A DNA stretch of 64,000 nt from a virus (IMGVR_UViG_3300031998_000004); one strand, 5' to 3'; shown: positions 5,330 to 64,000, counted from the first letter of the stretch. Made by a program: numbers and translations. Notes: generated by a model not told the origin, from the sequence alone.

Positions 5330-6262
5330 TTAAAAATCTCCGTAATAAACCTGACTACAAAGTACTCCATTATCCCTCCACATCTTAACAACACGGTCTC
5401 TATCATCAAAGACAGTTACAATATTATAGTATGGTTCGATCTGTTCTTTGTAAATCTCTTCTTTTACTATAGCGTCGTTTCGATGGTCTCCTTCTTTCCT
5501 GAATATGACTTCCCACTGAGGAATCTTTCTAGGAAAATCTTTTTCGAATTCTAATGTGAGATAACCAAAGTCATCTGCAAGATTTTTGGTTATCCATTCT
5601 TTAGTATCCTTCATACACTGTGCTGTTCCCTCACGACCAGATACAAATATAATCTTCATATGATATGCGAGATACCGCAGCAGTTTCTTCATTCGGGGAT
5701 CAAAAGTATCTTCTTTCACTCGTGACAAGTCATATGCGTTCCTACCATTATGAATAGCCACGGTTCCATCCAGATCACACACAATCACATCTTCTTTCGT
5801 GGGGTCTGGTAATTTGATATGGCGAGTATCCTTATGTCCGAGCTTGTTCGGGAAGTAATTTTTGAAGAATCTCTTAATAGTTTCCTCACCAACACTCCTC
5901 CCACCATTCTCTCCTCTCTTCCTATCTCTCTCGAGCGCCTCTTCGTAAGAGATTTCAAAGAGTTTATATTCTATTTCTGCGTTATGTTTCTCAGCAAGAT
6001 CATTCCATTTAAGAATGGTCTTGGGATTAAGATTAGTAGCATCTATAATAACATTGAGATAGTTGTCAAGAGCCATTTCTATCTGGTTCTTTTCAACATC
6101 GGATATATAGTTCTCCCTCTCCGGAACCCAGTACACACCAGTCCCTTCGCGGATACTATCACGACAGACTATAACATAATCTTTATGAGCCTGAGCAAAC
6201 TCCTTTGCCCAAGTACTTTTCCCACTCCCGGGAACTCCCTGTAAAACAATTATCTTACTCAT
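5330..6262 (-). CDS. pseT: Polynucleotide 5'-kinase/3'-phosphatase (T4 PseT-like)
   Basis: GVPGSGKST Walker A, CRDSIR, IIDATN; HAD domain DLDGT, SGR, FDDR. Confidence 0.92.
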   Translation of the reverse strand: MSKIIVLQGVPGSGKSTWAKEFAQAHKDYVIVCRDSIREGTGVYWVPERENYISDVEKNQIEMALDNYLNVIIDATNLNPKTILKWNDLAEKHNAEIEYKLFEISYEEALERDRKRGENGGRSVGEETIKRFFKNYFPNKLGHKDTRHIKLPDPTKEDVIVCDLDGTVAIHNGRNAYDLSRVKEDTFDPRMKKLLRYLAYHMKIIFVSGREGTAQCMKDTKEWITKNLADDFGYLTLEFEKDFPRKIPQWEVIFRKEGDHRNDAIVKEEIYKEQIEPYYNIVTVFDDRDRVVKMWRDNGVLCSQVYYGDF

Positions 6263-8813: not shown

Positions 8814-9480
8814 CGTTATCTGTGTTTGAATGTTTTCTATGAAGTCTTAAAAAGAATATTATGGTTGGTCTGGATGATGCCCATAATTTTGTTTTATCCA
8901 TATCGCACCAAAAACACTCCTCATTATTTATGGAGTTTATTGTGATTTCAACCTTAAATCGATTCACATCCGATAAATACCCATTATCAATAGAAGTACA
9001 ATGGACATCTGCAGAACACTCAGACCATATATGTCTTTTAATATTCTGTTCCATGTGACTTGCAACAATATTCCAATATGTTGAATATTTTGCTAGGGAT
9101 ATAAAAGGGCTAGTTGACCAATAAGGTCCGTAGCCGTGGTTTTCTGTGTCGGTTATTACCTCATCCGGTTCAGTCAGCGGCAGTGCTATGTCGAACTCAC
9201 CATCGAGACCGGCGAACCTTATAATATCTTCAAGTTTTCTAATATTTATATCAAATATCTCGATATAACTAACCCATCTACGTTTATCTCCTACATAGCA
9301 ATCAATTTTGTTCTCGGTTACCACATAATCCAATATGCCACGATCTCGAGGCCCAAGCATTCGTGCTCGTGTAGTATATCCGATTGCATCTCCTTCGGAG
9401 GCTTTGCAGTTTTTGAAATAACAAAAGTCAACACTGAAAGCGTTGTACATTTTGTCTTTGAAGTCACTGAATATACTCAT
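8800..9480 (-). CDS. MSIF-tag hypothetical protein
   Basis: Starts MSIFSDF. Confidence 0.8.
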   Translation of the reverse strand: MSIFSDFKDKMYNAFSVDFCYFKNCKASEGDAIGYTTRARMLGPRDRGILDYVVTENKIDCYVGDKRRWVSYIEIFDINIRKLEDIIRFAGLDGEFDIALPLTEPDEVITDTENHGYGPYWSTSPFISLAKYSTYWNIVASHMEQNIKRHIWSECSADVHCTSIDNGYLSDVNRFKVEITINSINNEECFWCDMDKTKLWASSRPTIIFFLRLHRKHSNTDNDVFI

Positions 9481-24989: not shown

Positions 24990-26768
24990 TCAATTATTTA
25001 ATTTTAAAATGTATTTTGTTTGTCCGCTATCATAGATTCTATAGTATCCTTTTGCTTTCATTATTTCAAACTCCGATTCACTTGGATTTTCGCCATTTTT
25101 TACCAATTCAGACTTTCTAAATTTAAATCTATGATATCGATTCATGTCTTTATCAATATACCAATATGAGTGTTTTGTAATTGATAAATAAGAAAATCCA
25201 AGAGTTTTATATAATTCTCCATTACTTATATCATTAGAAGAAAATGATTCAATAGAATTTGGATGATAATTATTAATAAAATACTTTAATAATTTACTTG
25301 CTCCTCCTGCTATACTTGTATTTAATTTATTACAAAATCTATATAATTCCCAATCATTTTGTTTACCTTTATTACCTAGAGATCCTCTCTTTTTTCCAAA
25401 GGCCATTAATGATACCAATTCATCGCCATAATACAAACCAACACGGATGGAAGAATTTACGTACCCTTGTAGATGATTATCATTTAAAAATTTTAACGCA
25501 TCAGAATTTGACACTATTTTAATATTGCATTTTCTAGCATATATCTTTCTTTGATATAATCCCAGGTTATGTAATAATATAGATTCTACTATATTGGGTT
25601 TATTTAATATTTGATCCTCCCAAAATGACAATAATTTAATACCAATTTCTCGACATTTTTTCCATTTATTATAATGATAATTACTATCTTTTAATGAATG
25701 CCAATAAATACCATTACATTCGATCGCAATATTGTGTTCCGGGATAAATATATCTAATTCTTTCCCATTTAATATACTTTTATTATTTGTCTCATAAAAT
25801 ACATTATATTTGTCGAGAATATCTCTTATAAATAATTCTATAGTAGTTCCTTTATTAGTATTGCCGGGACATAACACAACACATAACTCTCTATTTTCAT
25901 AATTTCTTACAAAGTATTTATCATAGGGAATAATAAATTCTTTTTCATTACATTTATTGCATTCTGGATGGGGACATTTACATTTAAAAAATTTACCGTC
26001 GAAATTTTCAATCCTATCAATTATTATATCAGAATTATTAATATGGTTTTGAATTCTTGTTTGTTTTGACTTATCATTCAATTCTTTATTTTGAAGAGGA
26101 TATATTGAGCCATATTTTTTAAGACGGGTTTGTTTGCCTTTTTCCTGTATTTCTTGAGATTGAAATGGATACTCTACTCCGAATTTTTTTAAATTATTCT
26201 GTTTAATTAATTCCAAATTAATATAATTTTCATCTCCGTATTTCTCTAATTTAGTATGTTTTGCTTTTTCAATAATTTTTTGTTTCTCCTCATCTGAACG
26301 AGTAGAAACTGTTTCATTTATTTTCTCTCGAATCTTCTTGTTAGACAAAGGAAACTCACACCCATATTTTTCTAAACATGTTTTTTTGCGCTTTTCTAAT
26401 ATAATATCATTGTAGTTTTCTCCATATCTATCAATCATGGTTTGTTTACATCTATTAACAAACCCATTATCCATTAGATATCTCTCTTTAAACGTTTCTT
26501 TTTGTTTCCGTAGTTTTTCTTTATCCGTATTTGCACAGTTAGAACAACAATATTTACCATACCCATGAGAATATGATATGAAATTAAGTTTTTTACCACA
26601 ATTTAAACAAACCGAATCTTTATCAATATGATATACATATTTGTATAATTTTTCGGCAAACACCCCATCAAAATTGTCCATCAAGTATTGATAAAATTCC
26701 GGATAGTTCTTTTTTATAAAAGATTCGGTTCTTTGCCCTCGAGTATTAAATGTTTCGGGTATGATCAT
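24990..26768 (-). mobile_element. Free-standing homing-type endonuclease (PD-(D/E)xK / DUF559-like) with KYG repeats
   Basis: ELDIFIP..NIAIECNGIYWH nuclease motif; repeated T.L.KYG units; C-terminal ARKC..FLNDNHLQG domain; markedly lower GC than flanks. Confidence 0.7.
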
Positions 26769-42999: not shown

Positions 43000-43744
43000 A
43001 GTCCTGATAAGGAACCGGATCTTTCAATCCGTTCTTCTCAAATGCTTCTAGTCGTTCTGTACAACTACCACACTTCCCACAGCTCCTACCTTCAGGGTCC
43101 GGATCATAGCATGTGTGGGTATTGGAAAGGAACTCATCACGGTCCTCATCATTCCATCCAAGAGTCTTCATCGCCTTCAACCCCTCTGCAAGAACTTCCG
43201 CTTTATCAATATCAACAAACGGTGCTTCGTAAGCTACTTTGTCTGCGTTCCAATCAGAAATCCTAAATGCCTTCTCACATGCCTCACGAGATTCAGGACG
43301 ACAGTCGGGATAGATAGTATGGTCTCCGGCATGGATACCAAGACTGATGATGACATTCTCTCCACTCTCTACTGCCCAGTTGATCGCTTTACTAAATACA
43401 ACTGCACTAAAGAGTACATTCCTAAGGGGAACTACTGTACTCTTCATATTCTCTGCAGCATAGTGTCCGTGAGGAATATCCTTTCCAGTACTCGCTACAA
43501 GTGAACTGGTATTTCCAGAGAATACATCAACCATATTAATAATCTGATGACTGACCGGAAGACCCTTTGCTCGTAAGAACGCGATGTTTTTGGTAATCTT
43601 CTCAAGTTCAATCCTATGTTTCTGACCGTAGTCAAAACTATAACATCTTACTTCCTTGCCTTCTGCAAGGAGCTTTAGTAAAAGCATGCTGCTATCCAAT
43701 CCGCCGGAGCAGCTAAGAACGGCCTTCTTTGCAAAATTACTCAT
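42998..43744 (-). CDS. queC: 7-cyano-7-deazaguanine synthase
   Basis: SGGLDS, FDYGQKH, VPLRN, YPDCR, CY...CGKCGSC. Confidence 0.95.
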   Translation of the reverse strand: MSNFAKKAVLSCSGGLDSSMLLLKLLAEGKEVRCYSFDYGQKHRIELEKITKNIAFLRAKGLPVSHQIINMVDVFSGNTSSLVASTGKDIPHGHYAAENMKSTVVPLRNVLFSAVVFSKAINWAVESGENVIISLGIHAGDHTIYPDCRPESREACEKAFRISDWNADKVAYEAPFVDIDKAEVLAEGLKAMKTLGWNDEDRDEFLSNTHTCYDPDPEGRSCGKCGSCTERLEAFEKNGLKDPVPYQD

Positions 43745-44316: not shown

Positions 44317-45357
44317 TTAATCTTTTACAGTATTAATATATTGTTTTATCTTATTAAATTTATCCCTTAACTCCTCCGGAATCATCCCTTCAGTCATCGT
44401 TTCGATATTGTATCCTTCAAACTTCTTAATGTCTACTGTTGTGTTCTCGTTCTCGTCCGGTTGAGGAATCCTCCATATATTCTTAAACTTCTTTGTCCAC
44501 TGTGAGTAAGCATCCGCGTATTTCTTTTGAGCCACCTTAGACCTATCTATATATATCTCTATATAGTCATCCTTCTTAACAGACTTCGGAATCTCAAATA
44601 TCTCGTCATTATAGAATCTCCAGAATCGGATACTCTTGGTGTTTGGAATAAACTTTAGTTCACCACCATCCTCGTATTCGTAGAATCCCCTTTCGGAGTT
44701 GTTATCAGTAAATGTCAATGCAAATACACTGCCGAGATTCTTGATATTGTCTTTAAAGTATGGGGTATGAATATGTCCTGAGATAATATTCTGACATTCT
44801 ATATCCGTTTTTTCACGAACCAAGTCAGCATGTGTAAAGATGTGTGTGATGTCGGCGTCGGGGGAGCGATCCGGATCATTTCTAAAGTTTTCTAAATATT
44901 CCACCAGATCGTCATGTTTGATCCACTCATACCATGGAACATACAAGCATACTTCATTCCCCCAAGTATCTCCTTGTTTAGATCGGGATATTATGTTAAA
45001 AATAGAAGGATATTTTAATTGTAATTGTTGAAACATTAGTGTTACCGTATCCACGTCTTCTATCCGTTCCCCGTAGTAATCATGATTTCCAGAAACTATG
45101 ATAAACTTATCTACTATCTCACATATCTGTAAAAATAGATCCACCACTGTTGTTGCTATATAAGTATTAATTGTTGAACGACTGTCAAACACATCCCCAC
45201 AATGAATGAGACGAACCATATATCCATCTTTCTTTCTCTTTTTAAGATGCGGAATGAGTTGTTTGTCAAAAAACTCCTTTTGAGACTTCAACCACGTCAT
45301 ACTACAATTATGTGTCCCAAAATGAGTATCTGTTATAAGAACTGTTATATACTTCAT
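44317..45357 (-). CDS. Recombination nuclease subunit (T4 gp47 / SbcD-like)
   Basis: TDTHFG, CGDVFDSR, GNHD, SGHIH, GS.F.LT..D...RGF. Confidence 0.85.
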   Translation of the reverse strand: MKYITVLITDTHFGTHNCSMTWLKSQKEFFDKQLIPHLKKRKKDGYMVRLIHCGDVFDSRSTINTYIATTVVDLFLQICEIVDKFIIVSGNHDYYGERIEDVDTVTLMFQQLQLKYPSIFNIISRSKQGDTWGNEVCLYVPWYEWIKHDDLVEYLENFRNDPDRSPDADITHIFTHADLVREKTDIECQNIISGHIHTPYFKDNIKNLGSVFALTFTDNNSERGFYEYEDGGELKFIPNTKSIRFWRFYNDEIFEIPKSVKKDDYIEIYIDRSKVAQKKYADAYSQWTKKFKNIWRIPQPDENENTTVDIKKFEGYNIETMTEGMIPEELRDKFNKIKQYINTVKD

Positions 45358-46300: not shown

Positions 46301-47776
46301 TTAAGATTCCTCCTCCATGTCATGTTCGCCAGCATCGTGGCTCTTCTTCTCAAGATCATAGTGAGCCTTCGTCTTGAGCTTCCAGGCCCGAGGGAGCGGA
46401 TCGTTGTTGATTCGGATAACTACTCCTTCGCGTGGTGCCTTCATCCGACAGAGTGGTTCCTGGAGCTCCATACCAAGCAAGGTCTTGTCGGTCTTCATCT
46501 TTTCGAGAAGCTCAAGTGACCACCCCTCGTCGTCGTGATTGAGATCGGGATAGAGCTCGCCAAGTACTCCATCATAAAGGATCGGTACTGTCATGAGTCT
46601 CTCTACTCCTTCGTACTTATGTTCGATAGCAAAGTGTGCTCGGAGATTATCTGTCCATGTAGCCACCTCACCAAGGTTCCACTCGCGTCTGTTTCCTTTT
46701 CTGTCTACTTCAACAATCCTATAAGGCATAAACTTCCACTCACCAGGACGGCAACCGTAGTCGTGTCCTTTCTGAATCATCTTTGTAGTTCCACCGACGT
46801 ATCCTACTATCTCACCATAGACAATCATCCCCGTGGTGATGTGGTCTGCTAGTAGGTCGCGGACCGGTGCCCAGATGTCGCTTCCATAGAAGTAATTTGC
46901 CTCACGAGGAACGTCATAGACCTTCTCATTACGAATCTTCGTCCGGGAAGCATACAAAAGTCTATATTCCTTTGGATGGAAGATACTATAAAGGATCTTC
47001 TTGAATTTATTATCCGTCTGCTTATAACAAAGGACATTTGCGAAGATACCACTACTACCGTGTACCTTAACAGAAATAGTTACATCATCCGTCGGACGGA
47101 ATCCCTTGTAGCAGTCTTCGAAGTGAGGTGTGTCGTAGTGATACTTGAACTGTCCGGGAACAAGCACACGAGCGCGTCTAAGGTTCTTTGAACGCTGCTG
47201 GTAGTGCTTCTGGTCATTGGCTTTCTGTTCTACAGGCCGCTTACCACCAACCAAGTACTTCTCGCAGAACACTTCATCCCCAACCACATCGAAACTCTCT
47301 CCAACAACATCTTCAAACTCATACTCAGACCACTGATTGAGGATAGGGTATGCTGCTTGGAGACTCTTGATGTCAGCAAGATACCCCTGAGAGTAAACAC
47401 CACGAATCTTAATCTGTTTTACTCGTCCGTTGGTCTCAAAGTATCCACCCATCCCACTCAGTTCCTCAAGAGACTTACCAGAGCATAGTGCCTCGGTGAC
47501 CTCTTCAAAGTTGTCGTTGAGTTGATAGGATTCACTAGAAATTCTATATAAGTTATTCTTACTCAAGAACTTATGTGAGAGACTAGTCTCTACAGGAACA
47601 TATACATAGATGTTATCTCGGGGAAGATCCTTTGATATAACCACATCTCGTCCGCATACGATTGCTCGTACGAGTCGATCTGCTCCCGGAATGGGGAACA
47701 CAGCATCAATCTTGGTAAAGGTAGCTCTGTAGTTTACAAAACCGCCTTCTGATTGCTTGAATAAATCTTTAAGCAT
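46301..47776 (-). CDS. RNA ligase (Rnl2/DRB0094-like)
   Basis: N-terminal PIPGADRL domain; KVHGSS (motif I), YGEIVG, REGVVIR, WKLK. Confidence 0.82.
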   Translation of the reverse strand: MLKDLFKQSEGGFVNYRATFTKIDAVFPIPGADRLVRAIVCGRDVVISKDLPRDNIYVYVPVETSLSHKFLSKNNLYRISSESYQLNDNFEEVTEALCSGKSLEELSGMGGYFETNGRVKQIKIRGVYSQGYLADIKSLQAAYPILNQWSEYEFEDVVGESFDVVGDEVFCEKYLVGGKRPVEQKANDQKHYQQRSKNLRRARVLVPGQFKYHYDTPHFEDCYKGFRPTDDVTISVKVHGSSGIFANVLCYKQTDNKFKKILYSIFHPKEYRLLYASRTKIRNEKVYDVPREANYFYGSDIWAPVRDLLADHITTGMIVYGEIVGYVGGTTKMIQKGHDYGCRPGEWKFMPYRIVEVDRKGNRREWNLGEVATWTDNLRAHFAIEHKYEGVERLMTVPILYDGVLGELYPDLNHDDEGWSLELLEKMKTDKTLLGMELQEPLCRMKAPREGVVIRINNDPLPRAWKLKTKAHYDLEKKSHDAGEHDMEEES

Positions 47777-60253: not shown

Positions 60254-60985
60254 TTATTCTTTAGCGATCTCAACCGAGAATGGTGGATAGTTCTTCTTGT
60301 AGTCTTCATCTAACATACTTACGTTAACCACTTTCGTTCCATTTCCCCCATCGGTCTCGTGGTGATCCCCGCTGTGAACGTGTCCACAAAACACATAACC
60401 GATCTGCTTAAAGTAAATAGCATCTGTGAGTTCCTGGCATCCGAAGTTTCGACCCCAGTTCCATCCCCTCTGAAGAACGGTTCCTGCATCACCAATCCGT
60501 GGAGGGCAGTGAGTGAGGAGCACGTCAACCCGATCTGGAATTTTAGCATACTCTTGCTCTAGTTTGAAGTGATCTCCGTAGAACGCCCATGACTGTAAGT
60601 CGGGACACCAAGAAGTACCATAGAAGGTAAACCCTTCATATTTCCATCCGTTGTCACAAAGGATAACGAGTTTATGTTGCCCTTTGAGAGAGCCAGGCAT
60701 AAGGAGTCTGGACATCATCTCACCATTATTCATATGGTCCGGCCCGATGTGTTGTGCAAAGAAGTCATGATTTCCAAAGACCATCACTACTTTCTTAAAA
60801 GGAAGGGAGTCGGTCCATGGGATGAACACCTGGCAGAACCACGCGATGGACTGTACGTCGTTGCGTTGAAGATCAAGCGGAACTACATCTCCACATATAC
60901 AGAGGACATCTCCCTCCTCGAAGAAATCGGGCTTCGGGAGATTTCCGTGAAGGTCACTAATTGCTGATAATTTAAGTTTTCTCAT
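60254..60985 (-). CDS. Metallophosphoesterase
   Basis: SDLHG, CGD, GNHD, THCPP, CGHVH. Confidence 0.9.
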   Translation of the reverse strand: MRKLKLSAISDLHGNLPKPDFFEEGDVLCICGDVVPLDLQRNDVQSIAWFCQVFIPWTDSLPFKKVVMVFGNHDFFAQHIGPDHMNNGEMMSRLLMPGSLKGQHKLVILCDNGWKYEGFTFYGTSWCPDLQSWAFYGDHFKLEQEYAKIPDRVDVLLTHCPPRIGDAGTVLQRGWNWGRNFGCQELTDAIYFKQIGYVFCGHVHSGDHHETDGGNGTKVVNVSMLDEDYKKNYPPFSVEIAKE

Positions 60986-61025
60986 ATTGTAATTACGAAG
61001 TCTTTTGGTTGAGACTCCTCAACTA

Positions 61026-61064
61026 AAATATATAAAAAAAGACCCCCTTGTTTAGGAGGTCTTT
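61026..61064 (-). promoter_or_regulatory. Composite terminator hairpin + candidate promoter
   Basis: AAAAGACC..GGTCTTTT hairpin containing CTAAA-18nt-TATATTT. Confidence 0.55.
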
Positions 61065-61086
61065 TGGAGTGAAATTTTGGTAATTA

Positions 61087-62430
61087 TTAAATCACGCCGT
61101 CATCGCCGTTATTAACGCCACGCAAATCATAATCAATAAACGCAATATAATATCCGAAATCTTCGGCGTATGTTTTCCAATCGTCTCCGGTATACCCATG
61201 AATTACATTAACAAATACTATTGCTGCAAGATATACATGAGATTCTGATGGATCTGGGGGGAATGATGAGTAAAAAATACAAGGATATTCCCATATTTCG
61301 CTCAAATACATATGAGTTTTCGTTCTCCAAGCAATGTCATTTGTATCCAAGACTTTATATCCAGTTATTGAAGTATCGTCTTTTACTGTTATATCATATA
61401 GTTGCTGATTCATAGGTTCATTCCACATACCATTTTGACTCGTATACATATATCCTCCATAAACCGGCCCACTAATAGTTCCTTCGGAATCAAATACAAA
61501 TTCATATGTTGAATTATATATATATCCGGGTTGTAATGCTGGTTGCCATGTATTATCACCAACATATCCGGGGAAAGAATAATTCAAATCATTAGTAATA
61601 TTTTTTAGTAATAATATTTTTGGTTGAACTGGGGCGTCGGGAATAAATGGTAAACTTACTGTGCTGATTGATCCAGGACAGTTATAATTTGATAAAAGTG
61701 TACAAAGACTTGAAAAATAATTATCGGAATCTCGTTCAGGAAGATTTTCATAATCAGATATAAAATCTAAAATACTATATTCACACATTGTATCAATAGA
61801 TTCCTTGGTTAAAATAAAAGCATTATTTTTATCCTTTGGATAATATTTTTGACCATATGTAACCAAATTATCTTCTTCAAGGCTCTGAAACCAACTATAA
61901 TATCCTTCTTCGCCAAGCTCATTTATCATTTTATTTATAAATGTTTGAGCATCATCATTGATATTAAAATCATTATCAAGAGTGCTTTTTACAAATGATA
62001 TTTGATTCGATGATAAATTAACATGATATATTTGTTCTACCCAAAATGCCCCCATATCATATCTATGAGCCGACGGTGTATTTGTAAGTATTCCGTCATA
62101 ATAATCAGTTGGTATTGAATCCAATAATCCATTTTTAGCGACATAGTCGCCAGATGGAGATCCACCAGACACATCAACGTCAGCATACTCGTAAGCAGCA
62201 ACGTTAACAGTGCCGTTTTCTGTAATTTCAATAGTACCAGTAGGAGTACTTCCACCAGATACATTCACTTCTGCTGTGGCGTAATCGGTGACATCTACCT
62301 CACCGTTCTCTGTAATCTGGATGGTTCCGGTAGGAGAATCATGTATATCAAGAGACTCAGCAAGCTCGTCTGAAGGAACTACTTGAGTTATATAACCCGC
62401 GTTTTTAAGTTTATCAACTATTTCACTCAT
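61087..62430 (-). CDS. Putative virion surface/fiber protein with two N-terminal repeats
   Basis: PTGTI[QE]ITENG.V.V..Y..A.V.VSGG x2; TATAAATA (T4 late-promoter-like) upstream. Confidence 0.65.
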   Translation of the reverse strand: MSEIVDKLKNAGYITQVVPSDELAESLDIHDSPTGTIQITENGEVDVTDYATAEVNVSGGSTPTGTIEITENGTVNVAAYEYADVDVSGGSPSGDYVAKNGLLDSIPTDYYDGILTNTPSAHRYDMGAFWVEQIYHVNLSSNQISFVKSTLDNDFNINDDAQTFINKMINELGEEGYYSWFQSLEEDNLVTYGQKYYPKDKNNAFILTKESIDTMCEYSILDFISDYENLPERDSDNYFSSLCTLLSNYNCPGSISTVSLPFIPDAPVQPKILLLKNITNDLNYSFPGYVGDNTWQPALQPGYIYNSTYEFVFDSEGTISGPVYGGYMYTSQNGMWNEPMNQQLYDITVKDDTSITGYKVLDTNDIAWRTKTHMYLSEIWEYPCIFYSSFPPDPSESHVYLAAIVFVNVIHGYTGDDWKTYAEDFGYYIAFIDYDLRGVNNGDDGVI

Positions 62431-62464
62431 TTCAAATTCTTTTATTTATACTATAATAATCATA

Positions 62465-62494
62465 AAAAAAGACCCTCCTCGAAAGGAAGGTCTT
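62465..62494 (-). terminator. Terminator ending tRNA cluster
   Basis: AAGACC.TCCT-cgaa-AGGA.GGTCTT with T-run on minus strand. Confidence 0.7.
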
Positions 62495-62501
62495 GGGTAT
62501 G

Positions 62502-62573
62502 AGCCGGAAGTCGGAGTCGAACCAACAACCTACGGTTTACAAAACCGTTGCTCTGCCATTGAGCTATTCCGGC
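62502..62573 (-). tRNA. tRNA-Thr(TGT)
   Basis: GCCGGAA acceptor; ACGGT-TTTGTAA-ACCGT anticodon arm; GTTCGACTC T loop; no encoded CCA. Confidence 0.92.
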
Positions 62574-62582
62574 GGGTATTTG

Positions 62583-62654
62583 AGTGAAGTGGAGGAATCA
62601 AACCTCCGTCTCCTGCCTTCTCGGCTAGGTGTTCTCTCACTAAACTAATTCCAC
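62583..62654 (-). pseudogene. Degenerate or atypical tRNA
   Basis: GGAGG-TTTGATT-CCTCC T arm and D arm present; acceptor mismatched; irregular anticodon arm. Confidence 0.55.
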
Positions 62655-62659
62655 TGTTA

Positions 62660-63000
62660 CGGTCCTCTATCGCGGTCCCGTATAAACACATCGTCGGATT
62701 TCTACCGAAGGCATTAGCGCGTTTGCCAATTTTCACTTCTTGCAAGTCTCTGCATCAGTATAAGCCGAATATTCTCATCAGAGATCCGTTATTACAAACT
62801 ACAATCGCTTCAGTGATTTCGTTCCGGTTTGCCGTCATAGTCGCTGACGGTTTCCTCATTGGCTGTAGATAGGATAGGATTATGTATTATCCCTATCTCT
62901 CACTCCTCAAGACACTGACGTACGGTTCAGCACTCTCTTTAAGTCTCTGTTGTCGTGGTAGTCTCCTGGACTCGAACAGGAGTAGGACCATTCTGCATCT
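62660..63000 (-). ncRNA. Candidate structured ncRNA (about 340 nt)
   Basis: No credible ORF, GC-richer, several hairpins, T-arm-like/ACCA motif at 5' end, candidate promoter at 63026-63056. Confidence 0.4.
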
Positions 63001-63059
63001 ATCTTATACCTTCAAAGAACTAATATAAAATAACTAAAATCTGAAAGAAATTTAATATG

Positions 63060-63137
63060 TGGTAGTCCCGGAGAGATTCGAACTCTCACTGAATAGATCC
63101 TAAGTCTATTGCCATCTTCCAGTTGGGCTACGGGACC
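63060..63137 (-). tRNA. tRNA-Leu(TAG) with short variable loop
   Basis: ATAGA-CTTAGGA-TCTAT anticodon arm; GAGAG-TTCGAAT-CTCTC; encoded CCA. Confidence 0.85.
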
Positions 63138-63151
63138 AAGTAAAAAAAAAA

Positions 63152-63270
63152 TCATCACCTGTACCTACTCGCTGCACGGCACATCTCCCGGTAACGTCAG
63201 TCTCGAGGACCAACGCGTCTTCGATAAAATCCAGGGCTCTTTTGGAACGATCTCTTGAGCTAAAGTGATG
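63152..63270 (-). ncRNA. Expanded-cloverleaf tRNA-like RNA
   Basis: CATCACTT/AGGTGATG, GCTC/GAGC, CCTGG/CCGGG, GTGCC/GGTAC stems with enlarged loops. Confidence 0.55.
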
Positions 63271-63426
63271 TAAATATCAAGTTTAGTATATACCCTAAAC
63301 TAAGGTGGAGTCCCTATTAACGGAACCGAGCCGATACCTTGCTCGAAAAATTACAAATGAAGATTTATACTCTCAGCCAAATGACTTACGTCATCACCTT
63401 ATGAAGTTAAAATTCGGGTATTTAGT

Positions 63427-63461
63427 CAACATTAACTTTACAACATTAACTTTACAACATT
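63427..63461. repeat. 14-bp tandem repeat CAACATTAACTTTA x2.5
   Basis: Read directly. Confidence 0.7.
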
Positions 63462-63543
63462 ATTCAAATAAATACTTTATGACTATCCCTTAATTGGTCC
63501 ACTACATAAGATGTAAAAGAAAAAGAGCGAAAAGTAATGACGT

Positions 63544-63615
63544 TGGTCAGGCGGGGATTCGAACCCCGGTCTCTTCATCATTAGTGAAGTGTCTTGTCCT
63601 CTAGACTACCCGATC
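63544..63615 (-). tRNA. Atypical tRNA with AAT anticodon (nominal Ile), nested in a closing-stem module
   Basis: CTTCA-CTAATGA-TGAAG; CGGGG-TTCGAAT-CCCCG; one acceptor mismatch; G37. Confidence 0.7.
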
Positions 63616-63659
63616 GGACTAGCGAATAGGAACTTTATATGCTCTTTAAAAAAAAAACA

Positions 63660-63798
63660 CTCGCGGAAAGTAAGCAATATTTCGTCGGCTATGCCATTTG
63701 CCTATCTCCCGAGAGTATGAATGATTTTTTGCCGGGAGAGCTGGACTCGAACCAGCATACAACGAATCCAGATTAGCAATAGGAACTTTCTATGCAAG
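63660..63798 (-). ncRNA. Circularly permuted tRNA-like RNA in closing stem (Y-RNA/YrlA-like architecture)
   Basis: Order: TTCGT - T arm - TCTCCCG - linker - CGGGAGA - D arm - ACGAA. Confidence 0.65.
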
Positions 63799-63807
63799 TG
63801 TAAGGTA

Positions 63808-63896
63808 CAAGCGAGAAGTAATACAACTCCGGCTATGTCGGAATTGAAGGAATCGAACCTTCGTTGACCATTTTAAATAGGAACTTCTTTTGCTTG
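63808..63896 (-). ncRNA. Minimal permuted tRNA-like RNA (T arm + closed acceptor) in closing stem
   Basis: GAAGG-TTCGATT-CCTTC, AATTCCG-ACATAGC-CGGAGTT; CAAGC..AAGT/ACTT..GCTTG. Confidence 0.6.
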
Positions 63897-63897
63897 T

Positions 63898-63974
63898 TGG
63901 TGGGCACGGGTGGATTCGAACCACCGGCTTTCACTTTGTAAGAGTGACGGTCTAAACCACTGGCGTACGCGCCC
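63898..63974 (-). tRNA. tRNA-Val(TAC)
   Basis: GGGCGCG acceptor; TCACT-CTTACAA-AGTGA; GGTGG-TTCGAAT-CCACC; encoded CCA. Confidence 0.9.
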
Positions 63975-64000
63975 ATAGATGCCGCATTTACGGTAGTGCG

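Follow-up and report, generated by a model that had tools for sequence, protein, structure and literature searches.

What are the three tandem RNA modules encoded on the minus strand near the end of this viral sequence, each of which closes a conserved stem around a tRNA or part of one? The DNA analyzed is a stretch of 64,000 nucleotides (the window), and a preliminary description had proposed that the modules are protein-binding handles that display tRNA mimics, on the plan of the bacterial Y RNAs. The answer depends on how the modules are built, how widely their closing stem is conserved, and which gene it accompanies.

Read directly from the sequence, the minus strand carries unit A at 63896-63808, unit B at 63798-63660 and unit C at 63647-63522, just where the three modules had been placed. 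All three units follow a common order: an outer helix (P1), an A-N-A bulge, a 6-bp helix (P2), an unpaired UCCUAUU, a cargo, UU, the P2 return strand A-C-N4, a bulged C, and the return strand of P1. The last two pairs of P1 are G-C and C-G, and P2 consists of four free pairs followed by G-C and U-A, its 5′ strand ending in G-U. We refer to the constant part of the unit as the handle. In unit A, P1 pairs 63896-63892 with 63812-63808, the bulge is AAA, P2 pairs 63888-63883 with 63819-63814, UCCUAUU occupies 63882-63876, and the bulged C is 63813. In unit B, P1 pairs 63798-63794 with 63664-63660, the bulge is AUA, P2 pairs 63790-63785 with 63671-63666, UCCUAUU is at 63784-63778, and the bulged C is 63665. 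In unit C, P1 pairs 63647-63641 with 63528-63522, the bulge is again AUA, P2 pairs 63637-63632 with 63535-63530 with one U-U mismatch, UCCUAUU is at 63631-63625, and the bulged C is 63529.

The sequence of P1 is wholly different from one unit to another, CAAGC/GCUUG in A, CUUGC/GCGAG in B and AAAGAGC/GCUCUUU in C, yet it pairs in all of them, and the free pairs of P2 covary likewise; the covariation of the outer pairs that had been claimed for these units is thus real, and it is also strong across homologous units. The modules had been described with spacers of three to four arbitrary nucleotides inside the outer stem. The modules stand, and the spacers resolve into a fixed A-N-A bulge plus four covarying P2 pairs, with a single bulged C on the 3′ side. 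The 11-mer AAGTTCCTATT occurs exactly three times in the 64-kb window, once per unit; allowing up to one mismatch, there are 7 matches in the window when 2.3 are expected, a number reached in none of 100 shuffles. A different handle sequence, ACAGCAA, shows no enrichment in the window. The closing stem is retained in the minimum free energy (MFE) folds of all three units.

The cargos differ. The handle of unit A (63808-63896) surrounds a canonical T arm (63862-63846) followed by an acceptor-like hairpin (63846-63824), a stem of 7-8 bp under a 7-nt loop in the MFE fold, with neither a D arm nor an anticodon stem in the unit; sequence and fold agree on this arrangement, the covariance model R1 (introduced below) recognizes the unit, and the T arm plus loop-closed acceptor stem first described here is what we find. 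Unit B (63660-63798) encloses a complete circularly permuted cloverleaf, in the order 3′ part of the anticodon loop with its stem strand, variable loop, T arm, acceptor stem with a 21-nt loop, D arm, and 5′ strand of the anticodon stem. When unit B is rotated in silico so that the sealed acceptor loop provides the ends, ARAGORN reads it as tRNA-Gln(CUG) in which 13 nucleotides of linker are left over at position 34; once position 33 is joined to 34 it becomes a clean 76-nt tRNA, which bears out the permuted cloverleaf. In unit C (63522-63647) the handle is linked to the ends of a normal-order tRNA at 63615-63544 with anticodon AAT, also as first described. ARAGORN and Rfam both recover this tRNA, the latter at 58.7 bits for the tRNA family RF00005 against a gathering score of 29. 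This tRNA has a 7-nt anticodon loop, one A-C mismatch in the acceptor stem and no encoded CCA, and it is tied into the handle through linkers of 9 and 8 nt. An unmodified-type A34 (AAT) anticodon is unusual in bacteria.

Is the handle conserved elsewhere? Among 251 IMG/VR sites picked by the 5′ pattern alone, 41 have a full complementary 3′ side, counted as the complementary strand with its bulged C within 250 nt, compared with 19 of 5020 in shuffled downstream sequence. We aligned 46 short-cargo units from other phages, leaving the window units out, and built from them the covariance model R1. In this alignment 90% of the cells pair, a percentage partly due to how the units were selected; the double changes, which are unaffected by that selection, appear in 10 of the 13 pairs. 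The covariation score is 0.65, as opposed to 0.22 after shuffling and at most 0.20 when pairing partners are slid. For 92 further units from GTDB genomes the figures are 91% of the cells paired and double changes in 12 of 13 pairs; these are the best R1 units and the alignment is fitted to the R1 model, so that it leans toward pairing. Across phyla, the unpaired positions A8, A10, U17-C18-C19-U20 and C165 hardly vary or do not vary at all. Covariation in homologs had been set as the test of the proposed family, and these 46 phage and 92 GTDB units provide it in strength.

The consensus that emerges (P1, A-N-A, P2 ending in G-U, UUCCU, return strand A-C-N4, bulged C, P1′) is that of A, B and C. 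Within 61000-64000, R1 scores unit A at 47.4 bits (E-value 1e-11), unit C at 30.4 bits (5e-7) and unit B at 22.4 bits (7e-5, with filters off), and nothing else above 5.5 bits. Units A, B and C are members of one large modular RNA family of phages and bacteria. Rfam 15 has no family for the handle, either in 62300-64000 at E-values up to 10 or in four array-rich loci. The region has no megablast or blastn match in 50,697 phage records, the metagenome collection contains no exact copy of a 39-mer from unit A, and none of the handle loci compared has more than two proteins in common with the window. We found no published description of the handle or of the protein that accompanies it; the motif may appear, unnamed, among the 10,006 viral candidate RNAs catalogued in 2023 (PMC10690425).

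Cargos range across the family from none at all, through a hairpin or a lone T arm, to a permuted or a whole tRNA. The majority of the members are tRNA-free and have just 11-40-nt inserts, and tRNA-bearing cargos are far commoner in phages: only 1 of the 92 bacterial units holds a clear permuted tRNA. Units occur in arrays of up to six or more copies with differing cargos. Sealed acceptor stems capped by UUCG tetraloops or 8-9 bp long are found in the cyanophage S-CRM01, in locus L004 and in a Ktedonobacter MAG, and whole-tRNA cargos in other loci have anticodon loops of 6 or 8 nt. The handle can also be the insert. ARAGORN finds it as a 27-44-nt hairpin within the anticodon loop at four minus-strand positions: L003 1599-1712, L040 7683-7798, L070 about 8850-8965, and L072 about 520-640. 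These four are normal-order phage tRNAs (Pro-UGG, Leu-UAG, Glu-type), and their layout is intron-like.

In an all-against-all comparison of the ORFs around the IMG/VR units, one cluster stands out, a protein of 600-700 aa (roughly 630 aa) that we call the partner. In 17 of 31 IMG/VR handle loci its gene immediately follows the array and has the same orientation. A back-translated profile search finds 320 partner relatives in GTDB species genomes; some are on large chromosomal contigs from isolates (Ktedonobacter racemifer and Marinicella meishanensis, for example) and many in MAGs. Since the partner gene played no part in building R1, a scan of these loci with the model tests the link independently. 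Scanning the best 80 of the 320 loci together with the window (902 kb) yields 107 R1 matches: units A and C on the window's minus strand, and all others on the partner's strand. Matches are present in about 70 of the 80 genome loci; nearly all are no more than 500 nt upstream of the partner gene, and the final unit often stops 10-25 nt ahead of the start codon. The same pairing is present in a cultured phage. S-CRM01 encodes a partner homologue, g174, within its tRNA cluster; at least five handle units immediately precede the gene and one immediately follows it. Among these units are one with a permuted tRNA and one that, like unit A, encloses a T arm and a sealed stem. Five phage records have handle loci without an adjacent partner gene. 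In four of them, one a complete 424-kb genome, exactly one partner copy is found elsewhere on the contig; the fifth is a 10%-complete fragment.

This tight co-location suggests a protein-binding role for the handle, to the extent that gene order can speak for it. The bacterial units sit in the 5′ leader of the partner gene, and therefore the neighbourhood alone cannot tell a trans-acting ribonucleoprotein from a cis-regulatory element. No second conserved gene was found beside the partner in the 80 loci. An association with RNA-repair genes in bacteria was considered and rejected: the 25 commonest Pfam families of the 138 flanking genes in these 80 loci are varied and housekeeping, and include no RNA-repair family, RtcB among them. 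As a separate observation, many of the closest partner homologues, 50-56% identical to phage copies and with handles upstream, are on contigs binned as archaeal MAGs (Promethearchaeota, Nanoarchaeota, Woesearchaeota; loci L245, L246, L247, L250-L253, L255, L256 and L292). They could be mis-binned viral contigs, or true copies of archaea or archaeal viruses.

Comparison with Pfam, PHROG and the PDB sequences gives no match for the partner. Modelled at full length with AlphaFold (pLDDT 76), it is helical in its N-terminal part and folds into a beta-sandwich at the C-terminus. In this model the C-terminal domain is TerD-like rather than vWA, matching TerD structures with a Foldseek probability of 1.0 and a VIA-align Z of 8.8 (145 residues aligned, rmsd 3.3). 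We know of no TerD domain that binds RNA. The N-terminal 418 residues, folded alone with a 67-sequence alignment, reach pLDDT 86 and pTM 0.73; a Foldseek search with them returns nothing significant, and the highest VIA-align Z, 7.4, comes from short helical segments. Among the PDB entries, two alone cover most of the helical domain, both of them Ro60 structures: 1yvp from Xenopus (Z 6.0, 230 aligned, rmsd 7.1) and 9l5y from the Thermus phage phiLo (Z 6.0, 200 aligned, rmsd 6.1), at values within the noise range for helical repeats and thus a hint. Neither Pfam nor the PDB sequence comparison connects the partner to Ro60. Judging from the models, its layout of a helical part plus a cation-binding-type domain appears analogous to that of Ro60, with no kinship implied.

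What else does the window encode? Its terminase is T4-like, with Tenacibaculum jumbo phages as nearest relatives (32% identity), and from this terminase and its jumbo-phage kin we take the window to be a fraction of a large genome. Within these 64 kb no profile match to the partner is better than an E-value of 0.03, and neither TROVE nor TerD is among 25 of the 27 Pfam families listed for the 100 ORFs. On the minus strand there are a T4-type Pnkp with kinase and HAD phosphatase domains (5333-6262, E-value 5e-40), an RNA ligase (PF09414) with an N-terminal OB-like domain (46304-47776), and three calcineurin-like metallophosphoesterases (44320-45357, 60257-60985 and 1655-2398). Together, the Pnkp, the ligase and the three phosphoesterases look like a T4-type tRNA-repair kit. 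The minus strand also encodes QueC (43001-43744, E-value 1e-43), and elsewhere in the window there are a nucleoside 2-deoxyribosyltransferase and an IMPDH/GMP-reductase-type protein; QueC and these companions suggest 7-deazaguanine or nucleotide modification functions. A 592-aa protein of the HNH/homing-endonuclease family (phrog_3339, E-value 3e-114) is encoded at 24993-26768, also on the minus strand.

The three units lie in a minus-strand tRNA operon, 62465-64000 by ARAGORN and Rfam calls and by sequence, which runs past the window end at 64000. Its other members, all on the same strand, are tRNA-Val (63974-63898), tRNA-Leu (63137-63060), a weak tRNA (62654-62583; Rfam 38.3 bits, no ARAGORN call), tRNA-Thr (62573-62501), and a strong intrinsic terminator (62494-62469). 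The next ORF after the operon is a 447-aa orphan (61090-62430) unrelated to the partner; it has no Pfam or PHROG match and no relatives in IMG/VR. As a candidate for a divergent partner we rejected it, at an hhalign probability of 0.3%.

Several other features of the operon may deserve attention. The weak tRNA has an oversized anticodon-loop region in the alignment, and may be another non-decoding tRNA look-alike, without a handle. The non-coding spacer of about 400 nt at 62655-63060 contains a T-arm-like hairpin, CUCCUG-UUCGAGU-CCAGGAG, at about 62990-62965, followed by ACUACCA, which is the 3′ tail of the adjoining tRNA-Leu; this could be a tRNA fragment or a minihelix. The spacer as a whole was dismissed as a structured RNA, since its fold z-score of -0.46 is no better than that of shuffles. 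Between unit C and tRNA-Leu, at 63426-63462, there are about 2.5 tandem copies of the 13-14-nt unit AAUGUUGUAAAGUU with a TATAAAT box nearby, possibly regulatory. Runs of ten Ts follow right after the closing stem of unit B (63649-63658) and precede tRNA-Leu (63142-63152), and the run behind unit B could turn its handle into a long-range terminator-like structure. The sequence GAAGTTCCTATT resembles an FRT half-site; it has no inverted partner, and because of this we treat the resemblance as a coincidence.

Are the tRNA cargos mimics, or precursors of working tRNAs? Directly ahead of the 39-43 strand, permuted and intron-form relatives have five nucleotides that look like N34-36, a purine at 37 (12 of 13) and A38 (11 of 13); after the 27-31 strand, 9 of 12 have U33. 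On either side, between 1 and 10 nt separate the handle from the presumed junction. A parse by fixed rules favours insertion at 33/34, and ARAGORN places it anywhere from 32 to 39. Given this spread, we claim only that the break is 5′ of the anticodon. With sealed acceptors here and 6- or 8-nt anticodon loops elsewhere, we favour mimics over precursors, as far as the sequences indicate.

There is a further reading of the handle itself. If the last pair of P2 is left off, a 5-bp stem remains, with U16 and A159 as possible counterparts of positions 32 and 38, and U17-C18-C19-U20 reads as U33 plus the anticodon CCU; the cargo would then enter near position 37/38 of an anticodon-loop-like handle core (for example, 63633-63625). 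In one case, locus L070, ARAGORN did read the handle core as the loop of a tRNA-Arg(CCU). By this resemblance, the handle may derive from or imitate an anticodon stem-loop.

We propose that A, B and C are genes for small stable RNAs made of a constant handle and a tRNA-derived cargo, that the handle docks onto the partner of about 630 aa, and that the resulting particle shows a tRNA look-alike; we give this reading a probability of roughly 0.55. By analogy, handle RNA and partner would probably form a particle on the Ro60/Y-RNA plan without being related to Ro60: the handle, absent from Rfam 15 and from the papers searched, accompanies one and the same unstudied protein in phages and in bacteria. 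The most likely docking site would be the handle, with its P1, A-N-A bulge, P2, unpaired UUCCU and bulged C. The units are probably co-transcribed with the tRNA operon and would be freed by the tRNA-processing enzymes. In large phages the partner is encoded once per genome, often away from the dispersed handle RNAs. The RNA family, its covariation, the make-up of the cargos and the gene neighbourhood are what the analysis demonstrates; partner binding, release from the operon transcript and every function downstream are steps that we infer. The particle would present a look-alike that either cannot be charged or cannot decode, with the acceptor sealed in A and B, the anticodon loop broken on its 5′ side in B, and the odd A34 anticodon in C. 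A look-alike of this sort could attract tRNA-handling factors, keep them occupied or report on them, in the way that Ro60 acts with YrlA. A bolder version, which we hold only tentatively and consider doubtful as it stands, makes the module, across bacteria and large phages, an evolutionarily independent counterpart of Ro60/Y RNA in which the cargo slot programmes the target. The phage versions, which would display tRNA bodies with the anticodon loop held open on the 5′ side, might then act on anticodon-loop damage, either as a platform for Pnkp/ligase repair or splicing or as bait for nucleases.

Other explanations have to be weighed against this proposal. The units could be unusual tRNA genes in which the handle is a processing signal that is excised, with Pnkp and RNA ligase healing and sealing the ends, and RNase P and 3′ trimming opening the acceptor loop to leave working tRNAs. 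Unit B is after all a full cloverleaf, the anticodon-loop remnants (purine 37, A38, U33, at the frequencies given above) are kept and, with Pnkp and ligase, fit a cut-and-rejoin scheme, the window encodes both enzymes, the four loci L003, L040, L070 and L072 carry the handle hairpin in the anticodon loop of normal-order tRNAs, and the YrlA RNA of M. smegmatis is cut by RNase P and receives CCA (PMC4201824). However, the tRNA-free majority would have nothing to splice into a tRNA, the scatter of the junction (1-10 nt from the handle, 32-39 by ARAGORN) is a misfit for an enzyme that takes its distance from the handle, acceptor stems end in UUCG caps or are extended to 8-9 bp, there is neither a bulge-helix-bulge nor a splicing endonuclease among 25 of the 27 listed Pfam families of the window, and the bacterial units are found only upstream of the partner gene. 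For its tRNA-free majority, variable linkers, sealed acceptors, odd loops and geometry unlike a bulge-helix-bulge, we favour tRNA mimicry on a protein handle and regard splicing as unlikely. It is also rather improbable that the phage RNAs are sponges or hijackers that load or titrate a host copy of the partner, or bait the host's anticodon nucleases as counter-defence. Partner and handles are indeed chromosomal in many bacteria (320 partner loci), the 64-kb window has no partner gene, and tRNA cargos are mostly a phage trait; on the other hand, a phage whose handles are dispersed usually has a partner gene of its own (4 of 5 records), and the bacterial module, set among 138 varied housekeeping genes, shows no sign of a defence system.

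Could the handle simply be a cis-acting leader of the partner mRNA, a riboswitch-like aptamer or an autoregulatory operator, with the copies in tRNA operons secondary? Units at most 500 nt upstream on the same strand in about 70 of 80 loci, the last one often 10-25 nt before the start codon, are what a leader would look like, and two covarying helices around an invariant asymmetric loop are typical of aptamers and protein operators. But units A, B and C precede tRNA genes and a terminator rather than the partner, the next ORF being the unrelated 447-aa orphan, while arrays of up to six or more copies with differing cargos and tRNAs are unlike known leaders, and handle hairpins also occur inside tRNA anticodon loops; we give a general leader role little credence. 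That the units are true YrlA-type Y RNAs binding a Ro60/Rsr (TROVE) protein is already largely refuted, and we consider it highly improbable. The design is the same (PMC4201824), and the two Ro60 structures alone span most of the partner's helical domain; against this, the region 62300-64000 has no YrlA or Y_RNA match at E-values up to 10, TROVE is missing among the listed Pfam families of the 100 ORFs, the handle has a different sequence without GNCGAAN0-1G, and the co-located protein has no sequence link to Ro60.

If the proposal of a handle docked on the partner is correct, annotation has overlooked a widespread module of RNA and protein, carried by hundreds of bacterial species and by many large phages, S-CRM01 included; no Rfam family covers its RNA, and neither Pfam nor PHROG covers its protein. 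The handle-plus-tRNA-mimic design of Ro60/YrlA would have been reached a second time, independently, and the swappable cargo of the module would be a natural experiment on what such particles recognise. Part of the phage tRNA clusters, annotated or skipped, would then be tRNA mimicry and not tRNA supply, possibly tied to conflict over anticodon nucleases.

How do these units compare with known systems? In T4-type tRNA repair, Pnkp and RNA ligase counter anticodon nucleases such as PrrC, which cleaves at 33/34. The window has both enzymes, and the permuted cloverleaf is broken 5′ of the anticodon, near the PrrC site; the difference is that the flanks of the bacterial partner (138 genes) have no RNA-repair family among their 25 commonest. 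Circularly permuted and intron-bearing tRNA genes, known from Cyanidioschyzon merolae and from archaea, mature by bulge-helix-bulge splicing (PMC4090602). Unit B resembles them in placing the 3′ half before the 5′ half, in its junction at the anticodon loop, and in the helix formed by the precursor ends. A bulge-helix-bulge, however, has 3-nt bulges on opposite strands 4 bp apart, whereas the handle is asymmetric and conserved in sequence, a 3-nt bulge, 6 bp and a large asymmetric loop. The sealed acceptors also look built to stay closed, and most family members are tRNA-free. No tRNA-intron splicing endonuclease is found among 25 of the 27 Pfam families listed for the window.

The closest comparison is with YrlA, in which a terminal stem is the protein site and a tRNA-like domain has a sealed acceptor, and which is encoded beside its partner and also occurs in phages (Chen et al. 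2014, PMC4201824; RF02553). The motif GNCGAAN0-1G goes with its Ro60-binding stem, and in M. smegmatis the RNA is cut by RNase P and CCA is added (PMC4201824). The handle family has the same design, as the comparison with Y RNAs had supposed: a terminal stem formed by the 5′ and 3′ ends, a tRNA-like domain with T arm, D arm and loop-closed acceptor, a place beside a partner gene, and occurrence in phages. That tRNA-like domain is complete in unit B, reduced to T arm and sealed stem in unit A, and an open, normal-order tRNA in unit C. The cargo of a sibling unit (L093, 781-853) even aligns, over the cargo only, to positions 23-87 of the YrlA model, with 37 bits where the gathering score is 69. 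The suggestion of Y RNAs and Ro60 themselves, on the other hand, fails: the Infernal models RF02553 and RF00019 match nothing over the units, or anywhere in 62300-64000, at E-values up to 10, direct reading finds no GNCGAAN0-1G in A, B or C, and the co-located protein is TerD-like in its C-terminal domain, with no match to Ro60 in sequence. What survives of the earlier idea is a set of conserved handles that enclose tRNA mimics and are tightly linked to one protein gene; what falls is Ro60 as the partner. The handle has its A-N-A bulge, UUCCU and bulged C in place of the YrlA motif, the partner has a TerD-like C-terminal domain in place of TROVE and vWA, and the cargo is interchangeable, with handles that also sit inside anticodon loops and arrays of many units. 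These units are Y-RNA-like in design, but they are not Y RNAs.
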